From Candidatus Thalassarchaeum sp. (GTDB lineage Archaea > Thermoplasmatota > Poseidoniia > Poseidoniales > Thalassarchaeaceae): DNA of 61,457 bases. A model generated the notes under the pieces. That model searched no databases. It was not told where the DNA came from and saw only the letters and a program-made list of their open reading frames with translations. Each line of letters begins with the position of its first letter. Within the stretch, counting starts at the first letter, position 1. A program made the position numbers and the translations under genes. Below, piece after piece: positions 25,170-59,834 of the stretch. The stretch covers positions 49,584-111,040 of the forward strand of contig JAKUOA010000008.1 of NCBI GenBank assembly GCA_022451235.1. Reading direction: 5' to 3'.

Positions 25170-26159
25170 TCAAACTTTCCCTCGTGTGGTGCCTAATTTT
25201 CTCTTCTTTGATTTTCTTGGCTTGGGTGTAGAAGGCTCATCCGTTTCTTCTTCAATTCCAGTGCCACCAAGAGTTAAACTGCCACTTTCGAGGAACATTG
25301 CTTCTAATGAGCCAGCCAACTCTTCGCTTTCGGAAGGAGATCTTATCGCATCTCTAACTGATTGGTTATGATCCTTGATAGTCTTCTCACGTTCTTCCCG
25401 TGCGGCTTTGATAGAATCTCGAATTTCATTTACTTGGTCGAGTAGAACTTTCATTTCAGAATGTACTTCGTCTGCTGCTTTTCTTGCTTCAATAAATGCG
25501 TTGTGAAGTCTATCCCCCTCAGCCCGTAGGAAATCTCTTTCTTCAAAGAGGGGTTTAATCTCCTCCCATATTTCATCGGCCTGTTTATGACAATCAATCA
25601 TAGCTTGATGTTCTGAATCCGCCTCGGCTTTTAGCCTATTTATCGATTCATCCATGTCGCCTAGATCAATTGTTATAGCCTCGTGTTCCTTAATCGCTGG
25701 AAGTAACTCGTTTCTTTTTCCAATGAGTTTTTTGAGTTCCTTTAGAAGCTTGTTTTCATCTTCCAACTTTAGTCTGCCATCAGTTTCTAATCGCCTCTCT
25801 ATCTTTTCAATTTGCCCTTCGGTTTCAGACAATTCAATAACTACCGACTTAGAGCCTCTTTCCTCATCCCAGCGCCCACGTTTCTTGGAAATTATCTCTC
25901 TAATGTGGCCTTGAATTTCGTCTCTCCTAGCCTTGTGAATTCTGGCTTCGTCTCTGATTTCTTTTTGTTTAGCCTTCAACTCGTCGATAGTTTCGCGTAA
26001 ACCTTTGGCCTGTTCCTGTACGGCATTTCGTGAATCTGCGGCTCTACGTGCGTTTTCGTTGTGACCATTACGATTATCTCGCATACGCCTAATCTTAGTC
26101 TCCATGGCGTGTAGACGACTCCGGAGGTCATCGTCTGGGTTGGTAGACTCATCAGACAC
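25170..26159 (-). CDS. Coiled-coil protein, paralogue 1 (archaeal COG1340-like), basic C-terminal tail
   Basis: K/E/R/D-rich with heptad-like periodicity throughout and no TM helix. Ends in PKPRKSKKRKLGTTRGKV. Confidence 0.6.
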   Translation of the reverse strand: MSDESTNPDDDLRSRLHAMETKIRRMRDNRNGHNENARRAADSRNAVQEQAKGLRETIDELKAKQKEIRDEARIHKARRDEIQGHIREIISKKRGRWDEERGSKSVVIELSETEGQIEKIERRLETDGRLKLEDENKLLKELKKLIGKRNELLPAIKEHEAITIDLGDMDESINRLKAEADSEHQAMIDCHKQADEIWEEIKPLFEERDFLRAEGDRLHNAFIEARKAADEVHSEMKVLLDQVNEIRDSIKAAREEREKTIKDHNQSVRDAIRSPSESEELAGSLEAMFLESGSLTLGGTGIEEETDEPSTPKPRKSKKRKLGTTRGKV

Positions 26160-32286: not shown

Positions 32287-33228
32287 TTGACTTCAAATGA
32301 CCTTATATGGAAAACTAAGGACGTTGTTTCGCAGGGGCACGATTATATGAGGATGGAAAGCGAGGAAATTCGCGATATTCTTCAACCACTCTGTGAAGAT
32401 ATTCAGGAGCAGATTTCCTATAATCGTGAAGAACGCGACCAATGGAATTCGAAAGTTCGTAAATTACTCGACCAACGTAATGAATTAAATCGCCAAGTAA
32501 AGGAATTAATTTCTGAGGTACAGGGTCAAAAAGCTCTACGAGATGATGCAAATAAAACCGTCAGAGAATTAAAAGAAATCAGGGCTGACAAGACCGAGAC
32601 ACTGAGAGAAATTAGGACTAATTTTAGGGAGAAAATTGCCGAAAATAGTTCTCGAGATGAAGAGAAAGATACACGTGATAGGACTCGCTCCCCTGGTAGG
32701 ATTAGAGCAGAAATTGATCTTTTGGAAAAACAGTACAATGAAGGGCGGTTCCTTGGTAAGAAGGAACGTGATTTTGTGGCTAAAATGAAAAAGTTACATC
32801 AAGAACTAAGAGATGCTAAGGAAAAGAAATCCGATGGCGGAGTTAGGGAATTAAAGATTCAACTTAGGGATGCTGAAAGGAAACAAGAAGACGCTCACAA
32901 GAAGGTCAAGCGTGCGGTTATAGGTGCTCAAGAAGCACATGACTTGATGGCCGAATTATCTGAAGAAGTTGACAGATTAAGAGAGAAAGCTAATTCTGCT
33001 CAATCAGGGGTAACTCGAGCAAAAAGGGAAGCCGACTCACTTCATGGAAGATACATTGTATCATTGAGATGTATACATTCCATGCAAGATTTGCTAAAGT
33101 CATTGAACTCTAGAGAGGGAGATACTACAGATGATGATGAGCAAGTAGAAGTCGCTGACCTGATGACAAGGCTGATGTCTGGTGACACATTATCTACTGA
33201 CGAAATCATGGCACTCCAGAGGAATTGA
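32287..33228 (+). CDS. Coiled-coil protein, paralogue 4 (COG1340-like)
   Basis: TTG start in the track, with an alternative ATG at 32347. Charged heptad-like sequence throughout. The 3' end overlaps the convergent gene by 23 nt. Confidence 0.55.
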   Translation: MTSNDLIWKTKDVVSQGHDYMRMESEEIRDILQPLCEDIQEQISYNREERDQWNSKVRKLLDQRNELNRQVKELISEVQGQKALRDDANKTVRELKEIRADKTETLREIRTNFREKIAENSSRDEEKDTRDRTRSPGRIRAEIDLLEKQYNEGRFLGKKERDFVAKMKKLHQELRDAKEKKSDGGVRELKIQLRDAERKQEDAHKKVKRAVIGAQEAHDLMAELSEEVDRLREKANSAQSGVTRAKREADSLHGRYIVSLRCIHSMQDLLKSLNSREGDTTDDDEQVEVADLMTRLMSGDTLSTDEIMALQRN

Positions 33229-43765: not shown

Positions 43766-45169
43766 ATGAATAAAGGTTTTCGAAATTTAGGTGAAATAAT
43801 GGGTTCTGATGAAATATTGAGAGAGGTAGATTATTCCTCTTCGGCAAAATCTAGAGTCTGTAATTTTAAGATTAAAGGGGGTGACTCAATCAAGTTGATG
43901 GTCCCACCCACTGTTTACCCACCTAGAAGTGATACTGATCTCTTACTCCGGGGTCTGAATAGCGTAAAGATGCAAACTGGAAACCTGGTGGAGATAGGAT
44001 GTGGCTCTGGAGCCATTTCAATTGCAATGGCCCTAGGTGGCTGGAATGTAACAGCCTTTGATGTAAATCCTCTAGCGGTTGTGGCAACAATAGGAAATTC
44101 TGAAGTTGCGGGTGTGGGTGATAATGTTACTGTAGAAGAGGGAGGCGTAGGCGGGGAAAATTGGACGTTACCTAAAGATGCAGATATGGTAGTATGGAAC
44201 CTTCCATACTTAGCTCCAGATTTAGAAAACATGCTTGGCCCAATGGAAGAGGCCGCTATGACTGATGATCCGAATTTAGGTTGGTCAGAAAAATTACTCA
44301 GTATTGTAAATGATGAGAGTAAAAAAGATACTATATTTATACTACTAATGAGTTCAGATTCAAACCCCAAAAATTCCCCATTGGCTTGGACAAAGAAAGG
44401 TTGGTCGCGACGGACTCTGGCGGCTGAAAGAGTAGGTGATGACACCCTAGAAGTCGTAGCTTTCTGGCGACCAGGATTTGGTTCCAAATCAGAGTATATA
44501 GAGGTGACAAACTCCACCATGGATGAGGCAAGAAAATTACCGAAAGTCGGCTGGCAAAGAATCCGCTCTGGAGAACAGATCAATGGAAGAGGAAGAAGGG
44601 GCGCAAATTGGTATTCAAAAAAAGGTGATTTGATCGCCTCTTGGAGTGTTGGACTAGATGAAATTAATCGATGGGCTCCCGGACTACTACAAGTCTCGAT
44701 TGGAGCTTCAATTAGCGAAGCATTAGGCATACAATTGAAATGGCCAAATGATTTGATTTTCCAACAAAAAAAATGCGGTGGAATTCTTCTTGAATCTAGC
44801 ACCTCGGAAGGAAGGGTTAGAATTGGTGTCGGATTGAACAAGGATGCTCGAGAGATAGACGGGGTTTCTTACGCCGGTTGGGAAGATTATTTGGGTGACA
44901 TAGACGCCGAACATATGTTCCAAATTATCGATGCTTCAATAGCATCAATATTGGATTCTTCGCCGCCAATAGAAAGTGCTGTGGATACACTATGGCAACA
45001 AAAATCTTGGATTAAATTGAGCGAAATCCTATCAAGAGGGGTGATTACCCAATACGATGAAAAAACAGTAAATGTTGTTGGCCTTTCAAACACAGGCGCA
45101 TTAAAGGCCCGTTCTGCAAATTCAAAACATGACATTCAAGATGTGGGTGAATTTTTCATTACTTTCTAA
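43766..45169 (+). CDS. Fusion protein: HemK/Mtq2-like class I methyltransferase plus biotin--protein ligase (BirA catalytic domain)
   Basis: N-terminal half has VEIGCGSGAISIAMA (SAM motif I) and VVWNLPYL (NPPY-like). C-terminal half has GRGRRGANWYS and LKWPNDL...KKCGGILLE (BPL motifs). Start codon uncertain (43766 or the ATG of MGSDEIL). Confidence 0.75.
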   Translation: MNKGFRNLGEIMGSDEILREVDYSSSAKSRVCNFKIKGGDSIKLMVPPTVYPPRSDTDLLLRGLNSVKMQTGNLVEIGCGSGAISIAMALGGWNVTAFDVNPLAVVATIGNSEVAGVGDNVTVEEGGVGGENWTLPKDADMVVWNLPYLAPDLENMLGPMEEAAMTDDPNLGWSEKLLSIVNDESKKDTIFILLMSSDSNPKNSPLAWTKKGWSRRTLAAERVGDDTLEVVAFWRPGFGSKSEYIEVTNSTMDEARKLPKVGWQRIRSGEQINGRGRRGANWYSKKGDLIASWSVGLDEINRWAPGLLQVSIGASISEALGIQLKWPNDLIFQQKKCGGILLESSTSEGRVRIGVGLNKDAREIDGVSYAGWEDYLGDIDAEHMFQIIDASIASILDSSPPIESAVDTLWQQKSWIKLSEILSRGVITQYDEKTVNVVGLSNTGALKARSANSKHDIQDVGEFFITF

Positions 45170-46940: not shown

Positions 46941-47759
46941 ATGATGAGAGCGCATCTACCGACCTTTCATCGGCTTGTAGTTCTGGGCTGTTTTGCCATA
47001 TTATTGGCCGGTTCAACACAGGGATATTCGAACGGAATTGGTGGTGATGAAAATGGCGACGGGGATGTGGCTCTTGCAGGTTGTACCTGCCACAATGAAT
47101 TACCCGATAACTCAGTGACTGTGATATTGGATGGACTACCATACCATTATTCTGCAGATACAACTTACCAACTTACCATTCAATTAATTGGAGGCCCCGA
47201 TATCGATTCATCTTCGAACACCGGTGGTTTCGCCATGAGGGTGACCTCAGGCTCGCTAGCAGGTGCAGACGGGTTCGAGACCCTGGTACAGAATTGGGAG
47301 GATGATGTGACTAGCTTAACTCATTCAGGTGCCGGTGCTGAAATTCCAGACAGGACTTGGATGATTACTTGGACAGCACCTGAAAACGGAACAGGGGCTG
47401 TAACCATTTGGTTAGCAGGAAACTCCGTTAATGGAGACGGTATTCCAAGTGAACTCGATCGATGGAATCGTCTTTCAATATCGTTGGAGGAAGGGGAAGA
47501 CTCAGGAGATACAAGAACCGTTTTCAGCGGAAATGGTGAGATTGAACCTCCTGCCCCGGTAGAATCTCATGTAGATCTTCACCACATGGGTGCTAAGCTT
47601 AGAGCTCATTGGTTAGGGTTACTTGGATTTGCTGCAGTTATCTTGGTTATTGTGTTCTGTGGATTTTTCTTAAGGTATGGGTTCTCTAGACATTACGTCG
47701 GAAGAAGCAATTTGCTAAAATTACGAATCAAGCACCTACGCCGAGGTGATCAACTATGA
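46941..47759 (+). CDS. Exported beta-rich protein with a C-terminal TM anchor (reeler/DOMON-like?), first gene of the Rieske/cyt b cluster
   Basis: The ATG at 46941 (MMRAHLPTF...) gives a signal peptide. GCTCHN motif near the mature N-terminus. C-terminal TM LGLLGFAAVILVIVFCGFFL. Confidence 0.55.
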   Translation: MMRAHLPTFHRLVVLGCFAILLAGSTQGYSNGIGGDENGDGDVALAGCTCHNELPDNSVTVILDGLPYHYSADTTYQLTIQLIGGPDIDSSSNTGGFAMRVTSGSLAGADGFETLVQNWEDDVTSLTHSGAGAEIPDRTWMITWTAPENGTGAVTIWLAGNSVNGDGIPSELDRWNRLSISLEEGEDSGDTRTVFSGNGEIEPPAPVESHVDLHHMGAKLRAHWLGLLGFAAVILVIVFCGFFLRYGFSRHYVGRSNLLKLRIKHLRRGDQL

Positions 47760-48205
47760 GAGACGATGTTGTGATGAAACTTCTGCGTGAAGTCAAGGCA
47801 GGCAAAGTCAGTGTAGAGGACGCCCGCGATGCGCTGTCTGAAGTTGAGTTAAGTGAGGATGCTTACCAGAACGCTGTAGACCATGGAGTATTCAATGACC
47901 CAGAACCAGGGACGATTATTCGTGCCAGTATTTCACCATCTAGTGATTCTTGGCTTGTCATCATGTTTGCTATGTGGGGCATTCTATGGACTCTATATTG
48001 GGCTGGTACGCTTTCTTATGGATTGTACAACCATTGGGATCAGCAGCGATTATCCTTCCATCTTGCGATGACTCTACTCACAGTAATTTTGATGGGAATA
48101 GTTTACCTGAGATTTGTAATGCCTGATGTAATTATTGTCAAGCATAGAAGAAACAAATACATTACTTCAAACGACCCGGATGGGTGGAAGCAGTACGAGG
48201 TGTGA
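47756..48205 (+). CDS. Two-helix membrane protein with a soluble helical N-terminus
   Basis: 4-nt start/stop overlap with the upstream gene; its stop directly abuts the Rieske start. Confidence 0.5.
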   Translation: MRDDVVMKLLREVKAGKVSVEDARDALSEVELSEDAYQNAVDHGVFNDPEPGTIIRASISPSSDSWLVIMFAMWGILWTLYWAGTLSYGLYNHWDQQRLSFHLAMTLLTVILMGIVYLRFVMPDVIIVKHRRNKYITSNDPDGWKQYEV

Positions 48206-49066
48206 ATGATGGCGCGAAGATTTCGACTAAGGCCCCTTCCCAGTGACGATGAAAACTGGTGGGAAGAGTCGAATCCTGCTATTGACCGAAGGGAATTTAT
48301 GCGCCACTCATTCAATACTGCAGCCGGGGTTATTACTATGGCTAGCCTTGGTAGTATCGGGTTTGCTTCACTGCTAATGGGTACTGCCGAGTCTTCCGGA
48401 GGAGATTCTGCTGTTAGATTCTGGGTGCCTACCGGTGCGGAAGATTCCGCTTGGTATGGTGACCGTCATCTCGAACCAATGAATTACTCTGCTTTTGTTG
48501 AAGCTGCTGCAAACAGTGGAACCGGTATGTCTGGAGCACAAGGAGTATGGTCTGGTATGCCAGTTAACGTGGTTTATGTCCCACACGAAGAAAACGTCTC
48601 AAAGGCATCGACTACAAATGTACCAAGGTTCCAATTTATGGACGGATACAATGAGAGTGGAAAATATATTGGAAGTGGTTACGAACTGGAAGAGAATCCA
48701 GATTATGCCTCATTGTCAATTCATGATAATCTGATTTTGATTTTCTCCCGTTGCACTCACCTTTGTTGTATCCCAGGCTGGCAACTTGTGAAAAATGATT
48801 TCACAAATGACCAATGGACTCCAAACGCTGTTGACGCGGGTGGAAACAAATTATTCTGTATCTGTCACTCTAGTAGATTTGACCCTACGGCTATAGAGAA
48901 AAACCGTAGTAGAAATAGATCATCTGGTGCGGAATTTGACTTCGTTGGAATTCGTAGAACGGGAGGCCCCGCACCCTATGGTTTGCCATTAATTCCTTGG
49001 GTAAAGTCCGGAGATATTATCGAAGCTCTGCCAGACTTTATCGATTGGTACACATATTGCGATTGA
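48206..49066 (+). CDS. Rieske [2Fe-2S] protein, Tat-type signal anchor
   Basis: DRREFMRHS twin-arginine-like motif plus hydrophobic helix. Cluster boxes CTHLCC and CICHSS. Confidence 0.85.
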   Translation: MMARRFRLRPLPSDDENWWEESNPAIDRREFMRHSFNTAAGVITMASLGSIGFASLLMGTAESSGGDSAVRFWVPTGAEDSAWYGDRHLEPMNYSAFVEAAANSGTGMSGAQGVWSGMPVNVVYVPHEENVSKASTTNVPRFQFMDGYNESGKYIGSGYELEENPDYASLSIHDNLILIFSRCTHLCCIPGWQLVKNDFTNDQWTPNAVDAGGNKLFCICHSSRFDPTAIEKNRSRNRSSGAEFDFVGIRRTGGPAPYGLPLIPWVKSGDIIEALPDFIDWYTYCD

Positions 49067-49076
49067 AGGTGAGAAA

Positions 49077-49943
49077 ATGTTACAATTCTGGTTTTTGTGG
49101 ATATTCATCGCACTTATTGTTGTGATAGTTGCATTCACTCTCCGCAAGGAGCGAGAGGATATGCCTCGAAAGGAGATCTTGCGGGCTGTGGAAACAAGTG
49201 CTGGAAGTATGGGGCTAGCTGAGAAATCATTCCTCTGGGCTTTCTCGTGGTTAGACACTCGATTTAGAATTCAAGATTATTGGGGCATGAGCAGAGACGC
49301 CTACTACAGTGTTCATCGCCAAATGCCACTTACTCATGCTGAAAAATACAAACTTCGGATTATTTGGTATTGGTATCCATTATATTGCCTAGGTGGAATA
49401 TCCTTCCTAGCCTTCGTTATTCTAGTAATCACAGGAGCAATTCTAGGGCTCTATTACGTCCCAGGAGGTGAGGGCGACCCCACTCCTGCCTATTCCTCTA
49501 TGGAATTCATCATGACTCAATTGCCATTTGGTTATATCATTCGATCTATTCACCATTGGACTACGCACTTCATGGTAGCCGCCGTATTCCTGCATATGTG
49601 CAGAGTTTACTTCACTGGAGCATACAGAAACCCTCGTGAGTTGAACTGGCTAATCGGAGTCGCTCTGATGTTCTTCACCATATTTTTTGGATATTCAGGA
49701 TATCTCCTCCCTTGGGATAGTCTAGCATTCGGAGCAGCAACAATTGGAATCAACATGGCAAACTCTACTCCATTGATTGGTGGATGGATTGCGACTGCTA
49801 TGTTTGCAGGAACATCACTCTCTGGTCAAACTGTTACCCGAATGTACTTCCTGCACGTATTCATCTTACCAGTTGTGGTAACAACACTGATTCTAGCCCA
49901 TTTATTCATCGTATGGGTACAAGGAATTGCGGAGCCACATTGA
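49077..49943 (+). CDS. Cytochrome b6-type (N-terminal four-helix cytochrome b)
   Basis: Helix B pair IHHWTTHFMVAAVFLH has 13 residues between the histidines. Helix D pair FLHVFILPVVVTTLILAH has 14. GYLLPWD motif. YCLGG motif near the N-terminus. Confidence 0.9.
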   Translation: MLQFWFLWIFIALIVVIVAFTLRKEREDMPRKEILRAVETSAGSMGLAEKSFLWAFSWLDTRFRIQDYWGMSRDAYYSVHRQMPLTHAEKYKLRIIWYWYPLYCLGGISFLAFVILVITGAILGLYYVPGGEGDPTPAYSSMEFIMTQLPFGYIIRSIHHWTTHFMVAAVFLHMCRVYFTGAYRNPRELNWLIGVALMFFTIFFGYSGYLLPWDSLAFGAATIGINMANSTPLIGGWIATAMFAGTSLSGQTVTRMYFLHVFILPVVVTTLILAHLFIVWVQGIAEPH

Positions 49944-49958
49944 TTGGAGGATGATTAC

Positions 49959-52730
49959 ATGGGAATGATCGATAGATTTGGCCGAATCGCAGACACCTAT
50001 GTCCGCGAAAAAAGTAGCCTTTTGGAATCTGAAAAAGAACGTAGGCGTGTCCATATGGGCCACGCATTTTGGCCAACAGAGGTTCTCCGTGATACAATCA
50101 TCTTTGCATCTATGTTGATGGTCCTATGTTTCTATTGTTGGTTAATCCCCCCGCCGCTGCACAGTGCTGCCGATCCATTTGCACAAGCTGGGTTTGTTTT
50201 CCCAGATTGGTATGTTTTATTCTCTTACGGATATTTGCGATGGGGAGAATATCTACCACAATTCGTCATTCCTGCTGGCCCAATTGGAGAATTCCTGGGC
50301 TCACCTGTAATCTCATGGAATGCGGCTTGGTGGGGAGCAGCCCTTACTGGAATTCCAGTCGGTATCCTAGCACTTCCACCTTTCTTACCTGGACGCGAAA
50401 AGAGAGGTGTCGAGGACCCATGGTTTGCAACTGCTGGAGCAGTGTATCTTGCCCACGTCTGGTTTATCTCTGTTTATTCCATCAACATCTTCCTAGAATT
50501 ATACGCCAAAGATAGGACGGATTATTGTTGGGCTAATTCAAAACATATTTTTGACTGTGGAAGACAGGCACCATGGACAGCAGAAGTATTCAATGCGGTA
50601 CCTTGGATTCTTACTGGAATTTTCATCTTTGCTGTGTTATTTTTCAGTATAAGATGGTTCCTTGTCAATTCCATCGGTGCTAGATTGACGCCTTCTATGG
50701 GTAAGCAAGTTGCGGTTGGCTCACTAATCATCGCTGTATTAATTTCAGCAGTAACTTGGCCGATTTACGAAGGTGGTTTCTGGGATTACGGAGGCCTTGG
50801 TGCAATGGATGATATCGAGGAATTAGAAACCATGCGGGGCCAACCATCTGATACTCTAGTATACTACGAAAAAGGTGACGATTGGGAAGATTGGGAAGAT
50901 GAATGTCTAACTTTCTCCGAATCAGCAGACCTAGGTGTTTGGCAGACTTTGGATGAAGATTATGATCCCGAAAAATGGTGTGTTATACCAGCTGTACACT
51001 GGTCAAATTGGGGTGTCTACCAACCAACACAATCTCTGATTATCGACTTTGAAGGATTCAACGACCATTCATTCGAAGGGAAAAACTCAGCAGGTGAAGC
51101 CGCTGAATATATCGGAACAAACGAGGGTACTAGTATTAGCTATTCATGGAGTGACATAATAGAAATCGAAGACTTGGGGGTTTCTTCCATCTTCGTTGAT
51201 GTAGGGTGTAATTTCCGAACCACGGAAAGAAATGCAGGAACTCACACTCAGGACTTGACGCTTTCAAACGATGCAGGTGAAATTCTCTGGTCAGCAGAGG
51301 ATTCTTGCGATAGTACAACACTAAAATTGACTCCAGGAACTTATCTCCTAGATTTCCAAGTCAGTTCGAGTGGAGTGAATGAATCTGTCACAATGATTAC
51401 CGATTATTCAGCTGTAGCTTTCCAACCCCTTCTACTAGATGAAAATGGAGCCGCAGCAAATCGTGCCGCCCTCCCCGTTGGTAGCGACTTATCGACTATG
51501 ACTTTGGAAAATCCAACTTTCGAAAAGAATCCAAAAAGTCTGGATGCAAAGTTAACCTATTCGATATTCGTTCCTTGTTTAGGTGTTGGTGCAATGGTCT
51601 TTATGCTTATGAGAAGCATGGCAAGAGGTTACGAATGGGAAATGAACAAGTGTTATGGTTGTGATTTGTGTGATGATGCATGTCCTGTGAGATTGTTCAA
51701 TGCAGGTGATAAGTTGAATATTATTTACAATACTTGGAACAATGAAGATGATGGAGTTCCGCTGTATTCTTGCCTGACCTGTACTGCTTGCACGAACGCT
51801 TGTCCTCAATTGGTAGATTATGACTCATACATAGATATTCGACGTAACCTAATCGTAGGTGGCCCGCCAGCTGCTGAAATACCTCACAGTATTCTTCAAG
51901 CAGTATTGGCGGCGGAAGCGGAAGAGGATGCAGATGTAGAGTTCATTCCAGTTGAAGAATATCCTATCGACTCAAGCGTTGGATATTACCCTGGTTGTGT
52001 AGATTACATCGATCAAGAAATGATATTTAGTCACGTGAATGAAGGTGAGATGAATCTAGGTGAGACAACATCCGCTGCGTTCACTATCTTTGATGAAATG
52101 GGTAAGGATGTAACCTACCTTGGTAGAGATTTCCTAAAGTGCTGCGGTCACGACCAAAAGTGGCAGGGTATGACAGAGGTATTTGAGAAACTCAAGGCGT
52201 ACAACCAGAAGAAACTTGGAGAGAGCGGAATAGACACACTGGTTACATCTTGTGCAGAGTGTTTCCGTACCTTTGCTATGGATTACGAACTTGAAGAAAT
52301 GAAGGTTATGCATACAACTGAGTATCTAATTGAAAATGGATTCGAAATGGATCTGGCTGTCTCCGAAGATGTAACTGTCACATACCACGACCCATGTCGT
52401 CTAGGTCGCCAAATGAACATCTATGATGAACCTAGAGACCTAGTTAAGGCGGTAGATGGAGTTGACCTAGTGGAGATGGAACACACCGGAGAAGATGCCC
52501 TATGCTGTGGAGTCTCTAGCATGATGTCGTGTAACGAGAATAGCCGTGCTTTGCGTCTAGAACGATTTGATGAAGTAAAAGCCACTGGAGCTGAAATCAT
52601 GCTAACAAGTTGTCCGAAATGTGTCAGCCACTTTGAGTGTCTGAAGTTTGAAGGCGACCCTAGACACGACTTCGAAATTCTCGATGTAGTATCTTTCCTT
52701 GCCAGACAGATTGAGACAAAACGGCAATAA
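49959..52730 (+). CDS. Fusion: cytochrome b C-terminal/subunit IV-like membrane domain + extracytoplasmic domain of about 270 aa + TM + 2x[4Fe-4S] ferredoxin domain + two CCG cysteine-rich domains (HdrD/GlpC-like)
   Basis: PDWYVLFSYGYLRW (PEWY-type). Six predicted TM helices. CYGCDLCDDACP and CLTCTACTNACP. PGC...KCCGHD...SCAECF and DPCRLGR...LCCGVS...SCPKCV. The ATG at 49959 is preceded by GGAGGATGA. Confidence 0.85.
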   Translation: MGMIDRFGRIADTYVREKSSLLESEKERRRVHMGHAFWPTEVLRDTIIFASMLMVLCFYCWLIPPPLHSAADPFAQAGFVFPDWYVLFSYGYLRWGEYLPQFVIPAGPIGEFLGSPVISWNAAWWGAALTGIPVGILALPPFLPGREKRGVEDPWFATAGAVYLAHVWFISVYSINIFLELYAKDRTDYCWANSKHIFDCGRQAPWTAEVFNAVPWILTGIFIFAVLFFSIRWFLVNSIGARLTPSMGKQVAVGSLIIAVLISAVTWPIYEGGFWDYGGLGAMDDIEELETMRGQPSDTLVYYEKGDDWEDWEDECLTFSESADLGVWQTLDEDYDPEKWCVIPAVHWSNWGVYQPTQSLIIDFEGFNDHSFEGKNSAGEAAEYIGTNEGTSISYSWSDIIEIEDLGVSSIFVDVGCNFRTTERNAGTHTQDLTLSNDAGEILWSAEDSCDSTTLKLTPGTYLLDFQVSSSGVNESVTMITDYSAVAFQPLLLDENGAAANRAALPVGSDLSTMTLENPTFEKNPKSLDAKLTYSIFVPCLGVGAMVFMLMRSMARGYEWEMNKCYGCDLCDDACPVRLFNAGDKLNIIYNTWNNEDDGVPLYSCLTCTACTNACPQLVDYDSYIDIRRNLIVGGPPAAEIPHSILQAVLAAEAEEDADVEFIPVEEYPIDSSVGYYPGCVDYIDQEMIFSHVNEGEMNLGETTSAAFTIFDEMGKDVTYLGRDFLKCCGHDQKWQGMTEVFEKLKAYNQKKLGESGIDTLVTSCAECFRTFAMDYELEEMKVMHTTEYLIENGFEMDLAVSEDVTVTYHDPCRLGRQMNIYDEPRDLVKAVDGVDLVEMEHTGEDALCCGVSSMMSCNENSRALRLERFDEVKATGAEIMLTSCPKCVSHFECLKFEGDPRHDFEILDVVSFLARQIETKRQ

Positions 52731-52798
52731 TTGCTTTCAGCGAAATCTGATATTCTAACCGTAGCCTTGAGAAGTCATGGCCGATAGCATCGATTAGA

Positions 52799-53131
52799 AT
52801 GACCGGAATACCCGACCTTGCAGCCCGTAGGTCTCGTGAGCAAAAACGGATTCGTATAATGATGAATGCTATGCGGGCAGAGGAACGTGCTAAACTAAAG
52901 GGAGGGGATGACGCTGTTGCTTGGGTTAAGGAGGAATTGTGTATAGGATGTGACCAATGCACAATTGTATGTGACGATGATGCCATCGAACTATATGACA
53001 CTCCATTAGCAAGCCCGATAATGGATGTTGATGTCAACCGTAAGGCAAGAGTCCTAAGAGATCCATGTACAGGTTGCAAATTGTGTGTTCTTGCTTGCCC
53101 CACGGATGCAATAATTATGATTGATAGGTGA
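52799..53131 (+). CDS. 2x[4Fe-4S] ferredoxin-type protein with a basic N-terminal extension
   Basis: CIGCDQCTIVCD and CTGCKLCVLACP motifs. Confidence 0.75.
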   Translation: MTGIPDLAARRSREQKRIRIMMNAMRAEERAKLKGGDDAVAWVKEELCIGCDQCTIVCDDDAIELYDTPLASPIMDVDVNRKARVLRDPCTGCKLCVLACPTDAIIMIDR

Positions 53132-53462
53132 TTTAATGACCGAGGAAGACCCTGTGAGATTTGGTGCGGAATTCGGACCGAAGAGAACTGAGAACTCTAC
53201 TGGAGTTTCTCTTTCAACCTTCAAAAATCTAGTTTGGATCTCCAATTTAGGTGGCTTAATTCTCTGCGCAATAGCACTAGAAATGATCATTACAGGTCAA
53301 TTTCAGTTAGGTCTAGTATGTATGGTCGCAGGTGTAATAGTGGCTCTATTTCCATCAAATTATGAGATAGTTGGCATGGAAACTATCCAAGGAGGAGATA
53401 TGGATGAAGAGGCGTCTGTGTCCGAAGGCCAACTCGGTCAGAAAGATGATGAAAATTGGTGA
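53121..53462 (+). CDS. Small two-helix membrane protein, acidic C-terminus
   Basis: Overlaps the ferredoxin gene by 11 nt. Two hydrophobic helices. Confidence 0.45.
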   Translation: MIGDLMTEEDPVRFGAEFGPKRTENSTGVSLSTFKNLVWISNLGGLILCAIALEMIITGQFQLGLVCMVAGVIVALFPSNYEIVGMETIQGGDMDEEASVSEGQLGQKDDENW

Positions 53463-56249: not shown

Positions 56250-57128
56250 TCATCCCTCCTCGCGAATCTTATCCACTGCTTCTTGCAAAGTGATGCTTCC
56301 TTTTTCAAGGGCTTGCAATGTGGTATCTAATTTCGTAGAATTAAGTAGGGTTGAATCCCATGCGGAAATCAAACGTTCACGTACTCTGAGACGTTCTCGA
56401 TCTGTAGATGTAATCACAGTTTCAAGTTGATTGACCAAGTCTTCTACACCCTGTCCTGAGTGAGCGGAAACCATTAGGACATCTGGAGTCGTATCGCCTT
56501 CCCCAACAGATAAGGCTGATTTTACTGCCTTTGCTGCTCTTTCCGCTTCAGGCAAATCTGACTTGTTGATTACAATCAAGTCTGCAAGTTCCATAATACC
56601 GGCCTTCTCTGCTTGGATTATATCCCCTCTATCCGGTCCATCGACCAGAAGAATTCTATCAGCAAATGCTACCACTCTAATCTCAGATTGACCTGCACCT
56701 ACAGTCTCGATTATGATATTCTTCCAACCACATTCAGATAGAATATCAACCATAGGCGTCAAACAATCCATCAATCCGCCAGGATGGTTTCTAGTCGCAA
56801 GGGAGCGGATGAAAACTAAATCCGAGGAATCTGCATTTACCATCCTCATTCTATCCCCAAGAAGAGCCCCCCCGCTTCTCGGTGATGATGGATCAACCGC
56901 TAAGACCGCTACCGACTCCCCACGCTCGACCCATACGTCGATCATCTTTCCAATTAGAGAGGATTTTCCTACTCCAGGAGGCCCTGTTATCCCTAAAGAT
57001 GAGCCGCTCCCATGTTGAACTGGAGAATTGTGGCCTTCCTCAACAAGAGTTAGTAGCTTGGAAAGAGAACGTCGATTACCAGTACGGGCATTTTCTAGTA
57101 GGTCCTCTGATTTATTCACCAGTGCCAC
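56250..57128 (-). CDS. meaB: Methylmalonyl-CoA mutase-associated G-protein chaperone (MeaB/ArgK)
   Basis: P-loop GPPGVGKSS and the NKSD specificity motif (INKSDL). Confidence 0.85.
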   Translation of the reverse strand: MALVNKSEDLLENARTGNRRSLSKLLTLVEEGHNSPVQHGSGSSLGITGPPGVGKSSLIGKMIDVWVERGESVAVLAVDPSSPRSGGALLGDRMRMVNADSSDLVFIRSLATRNHPGGLMDCLTPMVDILSECGWKNIIIETVGAGQSEIRVVAFADRILLVDGPDRGDIIQAEKAGIMELADLIVINKSDLPEAERAAKAVKSALSVGEGDTTPDVLMVSAHSGQGVEDLVNQLETVITSTDRERLRVRERLISAWDSTLLNSTKLDTTLQALEKGSITLQEAVDKIREEG

Positions 57129-57550
57129 CCAGCCTCTTCACCAACTCCAACAGGTTCTTCTGATTCTGAGCGTTTTTCAATAGTTGTAAGGAATTCTAGA
57201 ATTTCTGTTGATGTCGTACCAGGACCAAAGATAGCTCTAACTCCTACATCATACAGACTTTGTCGATCATGCTCAGGAATAATCCCCCCTGCAAAAACGA
57301 TTACATTATTCATTTCTGATTCACGTAACCCTTCACAAACCCTTGGGATTAGAACGGAGTGAGCTCCAGATAGCGACGAAAGCCCAAGCGCACCTGCATC
57401 CTCGTCAATTACAATGCGTACTATCTCATCTGGAGTTCGACGAAGGCCTGTATAAATCACCTCATGACCTCCGTCACGTAGGGCTCTTGCAATTACCTTG
57501 GCACCCCTATCGTGTCCATCAAGGCCGGGTTTGGCAACTACTATCCGCAT
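57116..57550 (-). CDS. Methylmalonyl-CoA mutase small subunit (B12-binding domain)
   Basis: VVAKPGLDGHDRGAKVIARALRDGGHEVIYTG (DxHxxG B12 motif). The ATG at 57550 is preferred over the track start. Confidence 0.85.
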   Translation of the reverse strand: MRIVVAKPGLDGHDRGAKVIARALRDGGHEVIYTGLRRTPDEIVRIVIDEDAGALGLSSLSGAHSVLIPRVCEGLRESEMNNVIVFAGGIIPEHDRQSLYDVGVRAIFGPGTTSTEILEFLTTIEKRSESEEPVGVGEEAGWHW

Positions 57551-57656
57551 GGTTAAGTCGTACTTGGGACATCTGTAATAGCCTTCAAGGAACCGATTGG
57601 GGCATTTTGCTCTGTATGCTCTCATTAGGAATGCTCATGGACGGCTTTGACTCGTT

Positions 57657-59222
57657 GTGGATTCATCCATGTCAGGGGTGAAGGAACGTATCGATGACTT
57701 GCGCCGTCGCAAGGCACAGGCGGAAGCCGGTGGTGGACAGAAGCGAATCGCCGCACAGCATGCTCGTGGCAAGATGACTGCTCGTGAAAGAATAGAACAA
57801 TTATTAGATCAAGATTCATTTGTAGAAGTCGATGGATTAGTTGAACATAGATGTCGAGATTTTGACATGGATAGAAATGTCATTCCCGGCGACGGAGTAG
57901 TTTGTGGACACGGTACAATTGAGGGTAAAACGGTGTATTGTTTTGCTCAAGATTTCACAGTATATGGTGGCTCATTAGGGGAGATGCATGGGCTAAAAAT
58001 CTGTAAAATACTAGATATGGCCCTAAAAACCGGCTCCCCAGTAATTGGACTAAATGACAGCGGTGGAGCACGAATTCAAGAAGGGGTTGCTAGCCTAGGT
58101 TCGTACGCTGAGATCTTTTTCCGAAATGTAAGAGCAAGCGGAGTTATCCCTCAAATTTCAGTAATCATGGGTCCCTGTGCTGGCGGGGCTGTGTACTCTC
58201 CTGCGATTACTGATTTCGTGGTAATGGTCGACCAGACCGCTCACATGTTCATCACTGGTCCAGAAGTAATCAAGACCGTGACAAATGAAGAAGTTAGTTT
58301 CGAAGACTTAGGTGGTGCATCAACCCATGCAACTAGATCTGGTGTGACTCATTTTACTGCAGATAACGATGATGATGCGCTAGAACTGGTAAGAGACCTC
58401 GTTGCAATGTTACCTCAAAATAACTTAGAAAAACCACCAATAAAATCAACATCTGACCCCCTTGATAGGGATTGTGAAACTCTCGATGAGTTGATTCCAA
58501 GTGACCCAACAACCCCCTATGATATATTAGATGCAATCGAGGCAACCCTAGACGATGGGGCATTCTTAGAGGTACAGGCTGACTTTGCTGGAAACATCGT
58601 GGTAGGATTCGGGAGACTTGGGGGGCATACCATTGGAGTTGTTGCCAATCAACCAAAAGTTTTGGCAGGTTGCTTAGACATCGATGCCTCAGTAAAAGCA
58701 GCTAGATTCGTAAGGTTTTGTGATGCTTTCAATGTACCGCTACTAACTTTTGTTGATGTCCCAGGTTTCCTTCCAGGAGCAAGTCAGGAGTGGGGTGGGA
58801 TTATTCGCCATGGAGCAAAGTTACTCTATGCTTACGCCGAAGCAACAGTTCCAAAATTAACCGTAATCACACGGAAGGCATACGGTGGCGCTTACGATGT
58901 TATGAGCAGTAAACACATTAGAGGCGATTACAACATTGCATGGCCGTCAGCCCAACTTGCAGTTATGGGAGCTGAAGGTGCTGTGCAAATTATTCACCGA
59001 CGCAGAATAGGTTCTGCTGGCGACCAAGAAGGTGAGAGGAAGCGGTTAATCGATGATTATGAAGATACATTTGCCAATCCATATCGTGCCGCTTCCTTAG
59101 GATATCTAGATGATGTTATTCAGCCGAGGGAGACTAGGGCTAAATTGACTAAAGCATTAGGCGCCCTGCTAGAAAAAGAAGAAATTAGACCCGCTCGTAA
59201 ACACGGAAACATCCCCTTGTGA
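57657..59222 (+). CDS. pccB: Acyl-CoA carboxyltransferase (propionyl-CoA carboxylase beta / methylmalonyl-CoA carboxyltransferase 12S type)
   Basis: 521 aa with a duplicated crotonase-like CT domain. Sequence typical of the family throughout ([27 protein letters not shown]). Confidence 0.9.
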
Positions 59223-59422
59223 GGTATACTATGGCTCGAAAAAAAGATCGTTTACGGGCTGCTGCTATACTGGCTGTGTTGCTAGAAGAAGCAGAAGGGC
59301 AGGCACTGCAATCCTCCGAAAGCAGAGATGGAGGGGCGGCTTGGTCTCGAGATCATAGACGGTCTCTAATCGGAAGGAGAAATTTGTTTCGAGCTCGTAC
59401 ACGTAGAAGTACCACTAGGTGA
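59219..59422 (+). CDS. Small acyl-CoA carboxylase epsilon/PccX-like subunit
   Basis: 67 aa with a 4-nt overlap with pcc[15 protein letters not shown]...AWSRDHRR resembles actinobacterial AccE/PccE-type small subunits. Tentative. Confidence 0.4.
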
Positions 59423-59426
59423 TAAT

Positions 59427-59834
59427 ATGAAAAAACGCAAAGTCAAAGTCGACGATGAGGAATATGAAGTCGAACTTGAAAAGAAGGATGGTGTATGGAA
59501 TGTCACCATTGAAGGAAAGAGTTTCAACATAGAAATAGAAGGCAATTCTGTCGGGGACACCTCCGGTAGTAAACGGAAAAAATCATCTAGAGGGAAAAAG
59601 TCCGGAACTATTTCCTCAACAATACCGGGTAAGATAGTCTCCATATCGGTTAAAGAAGGACAAATGGTATTAGAGGGAGATGTGGTAATGATTCTAGAAG
59701 CGATGAAAATGCAAAATGAGATTCAAGCCCCCTTGTCGGGTACGGTGACTGCAATTAATGGCAAACCGGGAGATAGCGTTGAGGCAAATTCTCCATTAAT
59801 TATCATTCAACCCGAAGAAAACAAAACTGAGTAG
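59427..59834 (+). CDS. Biotin carboxyl carrier protein (biotinyl domain)
   Basis: C-terminal biotinyl domain with the EAMKMQNEI attachment motif. Confidence 0.85.
   Translation: MKKRKVKVDDEEYEVELEKKDGVWNVTIEGKSFNIEIEGNSVGDTSGSKRKKSSRGKKSGTISSTIPGKIVSISVKEGQMVLEGDVVMILEAMKMQNEIQAPLSGTVTAINGKPGDSVEANSPLIIIQPEENKTE

Follow-up and report, generated by a model that had tools for sequence, protein, structure and literature searches.

Cytochrome b6f and the b6c complexes of Firmicutes are built around a cytochrome b split into b6 and subunit IV, with a CxGG cysteine for haem ci, a PEWY-type motif at the quinol-oxidising Qo site and a disulfide cysteine pair in the Rieske protein, and haem ci of b6f has been proposed as a point of electron entry from ferredoxin. 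Among archaea, Sulfolobus is known to have a Rieske/cytochrome b unit that lacks a c-type cytochrome (SoxLN-CbsAB, encoded by cbsAB-soxLN-odsN), where the genes for an exported anchored protein, a small hydrophobic protein, the Rieske protein and cytochrome b follow in this order. Subunits of the heterodisulfide reductase type (HdrD) sit on the b-haem membrane proteins of HdrDE, DsrMK, TmcBC and QmoC-type complexes, which exchange electrons with quinone or phenazine, and in mycobacterial EtfD (Rv0338c) a membrane domain with haem b bears a four-cluster Fe-S module on its cytoplasmic face. In Angelarchaeales, an order of Thermoplasmatota, hdrD-like and rnfB-like genes adjoin those for the Rieske protein and cytochrome b (PMC9038741). 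Here, we analysed a cluster of seven plus-strand genes (46941-53462, labelled g1 to g7 in gene order) in a 61,457-nucleotide stretch of DNA (the window) from Candidatus Thalassarchaeum sp., which belongs to Marine Group II (MGII), uncultured archaea that rank with the most abundant heterotrophs in surface ocean waters. The cluster encodes the form that a conserved family of archaeal b6-type Rieske/cytochrome b quinol oxidoreductases takes in MGII. Judged from sequence, its composition sets apart, as an earlier note on this DNA had suggested, a distinct family, in which conserved Rieske/cytochrome b complexes carry Fe-S modules on the cytoplasmic side, and the core is conserved across orders.

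All seven open reading frames (ORFs) were found where the earlier note had placed them and are tightly packed or overlapping, as it described (junctions from g1 to g7 of -4, 0, 10, 0, 68 and -11 bp). Profile searches identified the products that it had listed, including the Rieske protein, cytochrome b6, the subunit IV/HdrD-like fusion, the 2x[4Fe-4S] protein and the proteins with two transmembrane (TM) helices. The Rieske protein g3 carries the twin-arginine translocation (Tat) motif RREFM and the cluster boxes CTHLCC and CICHSS, which showed no variation across 70 sequences and correspond to CxH and CxxH plus the disulfide cysteine pair, as defined for the Rieske/cytochrome b superfamily; it matches TIGR01416 (E = 1.1e-10) and the Rieske protein of PDB 7yr9 (E = 0.003). 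In g4, a four-helix cytochrome b of the b6 type, the four haem-ligand histidines (H159/H173 and H260/H275, two pairs on helices B and D) are invariant in 75 sequences. The same is true of YCLGG, whose C104 is the cysteine of the CxGG motif, a marker of covalent haem ci/cn in b6-type complexes (PMC5600118). A profile of the first 190 residues of g5 and its relatives matches cytochrome b helices E-G (residues ~230-380; E = 3e-15) as well as subunit IV of b6f (E = 7e-10), and PDWY, a PEWY-type Qo motif, is invariant in g5 and its relatives. The two proteins g4 and g5, encoded by separate genes, represent a split b6 and subunit IV with the haem ci cysteine and the features of the b6-type subfamily. 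The core shows all tested features of b6-type Rieske/cytochrome b complexes except a c-type cytochrome subunit.

The absence of a c-type cytochrome and of a recognisable copper protein, which the earlier note had stressed, was borne out on a wider scale. No c-type cytochrome or cupredoxin gene is inserted in any of the 65 Poseidoniales loci covering the whole cluster. In motif scans, CxxCH and the copper motif C-x(2-4)-H-x(2-5)-M were absent from all seven products, and cupredoxins were absent from the top 50 Foldseek matches of either exported domain, namely the g1 head and an insert in g5 (residues ~280-540). Elsewhere in the 61-kb window, no credible CxxCH or cupredoxin gene was seen.

Two small membrane proteins recur with this core. 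An MGII profile of g2 matches the DUF7318 genes of the distant loci L081-L089 (E = 1e-7 to 7e-17), and by Pfam annotation of the relatives a DUF7318 gene lies directly 5' of the Rieske gene in every lineage examined. An MGII profile of g7 finds a small ORF 3' of the Fe-S/FlpD gene in L089, L084, L085, L087, L088 and L081 (E = 6.5e-7 to 4e-3). These two unnamed proteins, g6 and the HdrD-like module of g5 belong to one conserved Rieske/cytochrome b machine.

After its subunit IV part, g5 continues with two extra TM helices, a ~250-aa extracytoplasmic insert, one further TM helix and an HdrD-type module, and this Fe-S module is predicted to be cytoplasmic because of the TM count and the positive-inside residues. 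Its C-terminus matches PF02754 (E = 3e-23) and Fer4 families and contains two CxxCxxCxxxC motifs (Cys 570-580 and 610-620) followed by two CCG domains of the pattern Cx(n)CCx(~35)CxxC (Cys 685/733/734/770/773 and 818/854/855/890/893). Nine of the ten CCG cysteines are invariant throughout the family, and the remaining one, C734, is conserved in MGII. Among Poseidoniales, few regions of g5 are as conserved as the HdrD-like part, in which all cluster-ligand cysteines are kept. The only solved structure matched by sequence to this module is M. smegmatis EtfD (PDB 9ojn, E = 7e-21), in which TCTGDS and TCPHC stand at the sites of KCCGHD and SCAEC in MGII g5. The C-terminus of g5 fits the cofactor definition of HdrD, and it has neither the HdrE partnership nor the ligand changes specific to EtfD. 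In some short-form fusions of relatives (P0129 and P0134), C-V or C-T replaces the CC of the first CCG motif (g5 residue 734), the change to which mycobacterial EtfD owes its linear [3Fe-4S] cluster, so that the family covers both cluster types. An assembly or frameshift artefact was considered for g5 and ruled out, since the same architecture occurs in hundreds of independent contigs and in 80 species genomes.

The insert of g5 shows a different pattern. It is poorly conserved, with H375, C422 and C455 as the only possible ligands kept, and it is not present in short-form relatives. Its AlphaFold2 model (predicted local distance difference test, pLDDT, 88) gives Foldseek matches to GOLD, jelly-roll and CBM-like folds. 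A hidden cupredoxin or other redox domain in the insert was ruled out by the poor conservation, the lack of a conserved ligand set, the folds matched and a length that differs by ~400 aa between lineages. The insert is hypervariable: some Poseidoniales proteins (P0451 and P0499) are 1334-1344 aa long and hold ~400 additional residues, made up of beta-sandwich repeats. It may be a surface decoration under selection by viruses or grazers rather than a part of the enzyme chemistry.

One genome per GTDB species was scanned. More than 535 g5 relatives were found, and the best 80 were analysed, all from Poseidoniales with 58-95% identity; the closest is from a Thalassarchaeaceae/MGIIb metagenome-assembled genome (MAG) with 95% identity over g5. 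Fusions of the g5 type account for more than 460 protein clusters among the homologues. The genes g1-g2-g3-g4-g5 are contiguous and co-oriented in all of the loci that reach far enough (65/65). The g6-g7 pair is adjacent to the cluster in 72 of the 80 loci, on the same strand in 41 and inverted in 31, where it is convergent with g5; all 31 inverted loci are from MGIIa. Eight of the 41 same-strand loci, from MGIIb, carry a glycosyltransferase gene on the opposite strand between g6 and g7. The seven-gene order described in the earlier note is thus conserved for g1-g5 but not for g6-g7. Since g6-g7 is inverted in MGIIa, the invariant operon consists of the five genes g1-g5, and because the pair is inverted in 31 loci or split in eight, co-transcription of all seven genes is not general. 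Conserved order within Poseidoniales is weak evidence when taken alone, because the upstream FtsZ-like and TPR genes are also syntenic.

Two side observations concern these loci. In MGIIa (Poseidoniaceae), a gene for a ~215-aa polytopic membrane protein, which is absent from the window, lies directly upstream of the inverted g6-g7 (L044:12289-12936, minus strand, and 30 other loci) and forms with it a separate three-gene unit; its product may be a lineage-specific partner of the Fe-S protein. Loci L026 (PAQG01000017.1) and L046 (NZNH01000104.1) are filed as 'Acidimicrobiaceae bacterium' MAGs and carry a full MGII-type cluster with a 74% identical g5, and are probably mis-binned archaeal contigs.

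For the wider family, representatives at 50% identity were searched exhaustively, and the gene contexts outside Poseidoniales were taken from contigs encoding short-form proteins. At least eight further 50%-identity clusters were found to combine PDWY with 2x[4Fe-4S] and CCG motifs. Most of these fusions are 540-700 aa long without the MGII insert, and the short forms are annotated with PF00032 and CCG, their named sources being Thermoplasmata and Candidatus Geothermarchaeales. The common gene order in these relatives is DUF7318, Rieske protein, cytochrome b, fusion, Fe-S protein and small TM protein. Their cytoplasmic partners vary, including a Fer4-FlpD(MvhD) protein in L081, L084, L085, L087, L088 and L090, HdrC/HdrB-like proteins with a 1010-aa HdrA-like flavoprotein and MvhD in L083, FrhB-like, HdrA-like, MvhD, a second HdrD and GcvH proteins in L086, and a flavoprotein with Fer4 and FlpD in L089. 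With HdrA-like, MvhD/FlpD and FrhB-like subunits attached to the same wire, the layout in these relatives is that of quinone acting as high-potential acceptor for a cytoplasmic donor module. The periplasmic modules vary as well, with a pentahaem cytochrome c bearing a C-terminal TM anchor in L082/L083, a cupredoxin domain (CDAHAPLM) at the N-terminus of cytochrome b in L089, and, in the L081 group, a cytochrome b with fused Big_5 domains. Such swappable periplasmic heads (cupredoxin, pentahaem c and the Reeler-like head of g1 described below) illustrate the modular evolution of bc complexes.

Some of these relatives have further peculiarities. In the Thermoplasmata group formed by L081, L084, L085, L087, L088 and L090, cytochrome b is ~875 aa long with ~600 aa of N-terminal exported Big_5 (immunoglobulin-like) sequence, and this protein contains four cysteines only and no copper or haem c motif; a gene for a CARDB protein is always divergent upstream of these loci. 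In Geothermarchaeales (L086:3707-10710), the fusion is followed by FrhB-like, HdrA-like, MvhD, second HdrD, GcvH-like and FAD-oxidase genes, a cluster of the Hdr/lipoate-carrier type joined to a Q-cycle core.

The small Fe-S protein g6 matches Fer4_21 (E = 1.3e-12) and the rnfB model TIGR01944 (E = 5e-12), the latter with 45.8 bits, below the cut-off of 68.7. MGII archaea are reported to carry an 'RnfB' but not the remaining Rnf subunits RnfACDEG (PMC6336850), and g6 is evidently this orphan RnfB of the literature. By its profile matches, g6 is not RnfB, the likeness being limited to the 2x[4Fe-4S] part. Its sequence is similar to the ferredoxin domain at the C-terminus of the HdrA-like proteins (residues ~910-998, E = 2e-8) that stand in its place in relatives, and the MGII version therefore looks like a trimmed form of the relatives' cytoplasmic partner.

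Comparison with the described systems shows where the MGII complex departs from them. Unlike b6f and b6c, it has no cytochrome f, mono- or dihaem cytochrome c, or PetG/L/M/N; its subunit IV is extended by further TM helices and by an HdrD-like Fe-S module fused to it, and DUF7318, g7, g6 and g1 are added. Relative to SoxLN-CbsAB, the HdrD-like fusion and the ferredoxin-like subunit occur only in MGII, SoxN is a long cytochrome b of the bc1 type whereas g4 is of the short b6 type, and CbsA is a b-type cytochrome whereas g1 has no similarity to haem proteins; the SoxC model matched only far below its cut-off. The difference from the Sulfolobus arrangement put forward in the earlier note accordingly stands for the HdrD fusion and the b6-type g4, but the order of g1-g4 parallels that of cbsAB-soxLN. 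The membrane part of EtfD is a five-TM HdrE-like monohaem domain, in place of which MGII has subunit IV/cytochrome b6, and EtfD has C-T in the first CCG motif (a linear [3Fe-4S] cluster) and a capping histidine in CxHC where MGII g5 has CC and Glu. In contrast to HdrDE, DsrMK, TmcBC and QmoC-type complexes, which have a dihaem protein of the NarI/HdrE type as membrane partner, MGII uses a Q-cycle core of Rieske protein and cytochrome b, and the CoM/CoB (coenzyme M/coenzyme B) or DsrC context of HdrDE and DsrMK is missing. Anammox Rieske/cytochrome b cores also have cytoplasmic redox modules, proposed to take the low-potential electron, but these are flavoprotein/NAD(P)-binding modules with multihaem c and HAO-like subunits, not HdrD-like fusions. 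In Angelarchaeales, 23 of 30 loci have a plastocyanin-like gene upstream of that for the Rieske protein, at the place of g1 in MGII, and the hdrD-like gene is described as proximal, not as fused to subunit IV (PMC9038741). The MGII complex is therefore a little-described variant of b6-type Rieske/cytochrome b complexes, not a categorically new one. In the literature searched, which was mostly open-access with subscription journals largely excluded, only passing remarks on the subunit IV-HdrD fusion were found, and heterodisulfide reductase was not mentioned in any of the MGII papers covered.

The place of a cytochrome c1 or f is taken in MGII by g1. This protein matches the NCBIfam model NF041895 (choice_anch_V) with E = 6.6e-26 and 91.2 bits, where the cut-off is 42, in an alignment that runs from position 2 to 147 of the 150-position model, and gave no Pfam match and no PDB sequence match, even with a profile. 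Its AlphaFold2 model has a pLDDT of 78 overall and >90 in the beta-sandwich, and in Foldseek it comes closest to the F-spondin reeler domain (E = 2.5e-6, TM-score 0.6). Invariant residues are C48-x-C50-H51, H128, H214, M216 and H223 (35-66 sequences of 45-97% identity); both homologue lists were saturated with MGII sequences, so that the invariance of CxCH is one within MGII. The cytoplasmic tail is also strongly conserved. Homology of g1 to cytochrome f, cytochrome c1 or cupredoxins was considered and is unsupported, since CxxCH is lacking and cytochrome f ranks below the reeler domains in Foldseek (TM-score 0.32-0.34, rmsd 18 Å). A profile of the g1 anchor gave weak matches to the anchor of the pentahaem cytochrome (E = 0.018) and to the N-terminal TM helix of the DUF7318 protein of L086 (E = 2e-5). 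From these features, g1 stands at the position of a c1/f-like subunit and has a plausible metal site.

Blue copper carriers are the usual archaeal solution for the acceptor of the Rieske centre. Halocyanin and plastocyanin genes are among the most highly transcribed genes in Thalassarchaeaceae (PMC9723583), so that the acceptor gene need not sit in the operon, and the acceptor on the positive (p) side of the membrane is probably a halocyanin or plastocyanin encoded outside the cluster. The statement of the earlier note that no acceptor is evident thus remains correct for the cluster itself, but needs to be qualified in view of these transcribed genes and of the cupredoxin or pentahaem cytochrome c found in the operons of distant relatives.

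In the mechanism that we propose, quinol would be oxidised at Qo on the p side, one electron passing through the Rieske centre to halocyanin or plastocyanin and on to a haem-copper oxidase, with g1, a TM-anchored head specific to the lineage, at the place of cytochrome c1/f. On the negative (n) side, g6, anchored by g7, and the HdrD-like clusters would form an electron-input wire, receiving electrons from reduced ferredoxin of 2-oxoacid oxidoreductases or from electron-transferring flavoprotein (ETF) of beta-oxidation and delivering them to haem bH/ci and then to quinone at Qi. The complex would in this way be both an entry into and an exit from the quinone pool, comparable to the wiring of ETF to menaquinone by EtfD and to the proposed feeding of haem ci by ferredoxin in b6f. 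We put the chances that electrons enter from ferredoxin or ETF by this route at about even. This direction is favoured because of the EtfD precedent, the RnfB-like g6, the donor-type modules of the relatives and the peptide and fatty-acid catabolism of MGII. EtfD has been demonstrated to act as such a wire, its four Fe-S clusters and its haem b relaying the electrons of ETF to menaquinone (PMC13083937). MGII archaea degrade peptides and fatty acids and carry acyl-CoA dehydrogenases (PMC6336850), and a ferredoxin entry point has been suggested for complex III of Angelarchaeales (Diamond 2022, PMC9038741).

Several observations weigh against this mechanism. What is seen on the n side is the topology and the cofactor motifs; the direction of flow is an inference. 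MGII g5 has CC in both CCG motifs and Glu at the site of the EtfD capping histidine, a ligand pattern that belongs to catalytic disulfide-reducing clusters more than to the shielded clusters of EtfD. In eight loci, g6-g7 was not found (contig end or beyond the 8-kb flank), and in MGIIa the pair is transcribed separately from g1-g5. On the p side, no halocyanin gene is linked to the cluster, and g1, whose gene shares the orientation of the Rieske gene in all 65 loci, has an invariant CxCH with conserved His and Met residues, suggesting that it may be the acceptor itself.

The ligand pattern of g5 bears most directly on the main rival, in which the wire would run outwards, the low-potential electron from Qo passing through bL and bH/ci to the HdrD-like clusters and then to a disulfide at the noncubane CCG clusters, or to ferredoxin via g6, instead of or besides the quinone at Qi. 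Both CCG motifs of g5 are complete and of the Hdr type, with CC rather than the C-T of EtfD and without its capping histidine; HdrA/MvhD bifurcation modules are linked to the same wire in relatives, HdrDE runs from haem b through Fe-S clusters to a disulfide, and anammox Rieske/cytochrome b complexes with NAD(P)-reductase subunits have reportedly been proposed to run output-wise. However, CCG proteins with complete motifs also serve as plain conduits in aerobes (GlpC, GlcF, LutA and Sulfolobus SdhE), MGII archaea are aerobic heterotrophs with no evident need for low-potential reductant from quinol, a CoM/CoB-type substrate is not known in them, and the export of electrons to the n side would oppose the membrane potential. 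Output is judged rather unlikely. The electronic link itself might also be missing, with the HdrD-like module, g6 and g7 being a separate conduit that uses subunit IV as an anchor or a decaying relic of an anaerobic ancestor. Two observations point in this direction: the partner, a Fer4-FlpD or HdrA-like protein in the relatives, is reduced in MGII to a ferredoxin of 110 aa, and g6-g7 has moved to the opposite strand in MGIIa. The strong conservation of the HdrD-like part and its cysteines and the retention of the subunit IV-HdrD fusion across orders argue against it, and a module without a haem-binding membrane domain of its own has cytochrome b as its sole nearby redox partner. We regard the absence of a link as highly improbable.

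On the p side, the alternative to an external blue copper protein is that g1 is the high-potential acceptor, a new TM-anchored redox protein that would bind copper or haem through C48-x-C50-H51 with H128, H214, M216 or H223 and would take the role of cytochrome c1/f; such a role fits either direction of the n-side wire. In position and topology (signal peptide, head and C-terminal TM helix), g1 agrees with the pentahaem cytochrome c of L082/L083, its anchor is weakly similar to that of this cytochrome and to the N-terminal TM helix of the L086 DUF7318 protein, and none of the Cys, His and Met residues named above varies among 35-66 sequences. Cox11 is a precedent for a CxC Cu(I) site on an immunoglobulin-like fold. 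Against these points, no cofactor can be assigned to g1 from the empty Pfam and PDB sequence searches, its top structural match, the F-spondin reeler domain, is non-redox, the choice-of-anchor V domain is otherwise found on bacterial surface proteins (according to the family description only), and blue copper proteins are encoded elsewhere in the genome (PMC9723583). We hold g1 as acceptor, or as an intermediary, to be a serious alternative, though less likely than not. A still bolder proposal combines both sides in a two-way redox hub unlike any described so far, where g1 would be a new redox protein replacing c1/f, with a Reeler-like fold and a Cys-x-Cys-His metal or haem site, and Hdr-type noncubane clusters would link the low-potential branch of the Q cycle to thiol/disulfide or ferredoxin pools, joined in anaerobic relatives by an HdrA flavin-bifurcation module. 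This combination seems quite unlikely; if true, one machine would couple electron bifurcation based on quinol with that based on flavin.

The locus also connects two loose ends of MGII physiology. Genome surveys have left complex III of MGII as 'non-canonical' and its 'RnfB' as an orphan, with reference to an "MGII specific complex III" and an orphan RnfB (Tully 2019), and the present analysis unites both. If electrons pass through the Fe-S wire into or out of the b-haem chain, respiration in MGII has to be modelled differently, with effects on the H+/e- yields and on the reoxidation of ferredoxin or ETF that stems from peptide and lipid catabolism. The complex also offers a natural example in which a redox module is hard-wired to a b6-type complex on its n side, and so bears on the long-standing question of ferredoxin entry at haem ci of b6f.

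The coordinates of the cluster are given in Table 1. From homologue lengths, translation of g1 probably starts at the second ATG (46944) and that of g5 at the ATG at 49959.

Table 1 Features of the MGII Rieske/cytochrome b cluster (coordinates in the window)
Feature	Coordinates	Strand	Description
g1	46941..47759	+	Exported protein with signal peptide, beta-rich head and C-terminal TM anchor; choice-of-anchor V / Reeler-like
g2	47756..48205	+	Small 2-TM subunit, DUF7318 family; weak match to PF24002, E = 4.7e-5
g3	48206..49066	+	Rieske [2Fe-2S] protein, Tat-exported, TM-anchored
g4	49077..49943	+	Cytochrome b6-type subunit with additional N-terminal TM; PF00033 E = 1.4e-41
g5 N-terminal part	49944..50513	+	Subunit IV homologue with PDWY Qo-site motif
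g5 MGII-specific insert	50781..51563	+	Extracytoplasmic beta-sandwich, 3' of two extra TM helices
g5 C-terminal part	51603..52730	+	Predicted cytoplasmic HdrD/EtfD-like module, 2x[4Fe-4S] and two complete CCG domains
g6	52799..53131	+	110-aa 2x[4Fe-4S] ferredoxin-like protein; "RnfB" of MGII annotations
g7	53121..53462	+	Small 2-TM protein; 11-bp overlap with g6; conserved Fe-S protein partner

The cluster is flanked by unrelated minus-strand genes, TPR and FtsZ-like genes upstream and an asparagine synthase gene downstream, and archaeal 23S and 5S rRNA genes lie at the 3' end of the window. A scan of the region for promoters and terminators gave background levels only, with bacterial models that are not applicable to archaea. 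Farther away, an ORF at 43766-45169 (plus strand) encodes a PrmA-like methyltransferase domain fused to a biotin/lipoate ligase domain, and the stretch 56250-59834 codes for MeaB, a protein with a B12-binding domain, a carboxyltransferase and a biotinyl carrier; together, this set looks like a methylmalonyl/propionyl-CoA pathway. Two DUF7121 paralogues (25170-26159, minus strand, and 32287-33228, plus strand) are located near genes for a CARDB-domain protein and an iron-dependent repressor.

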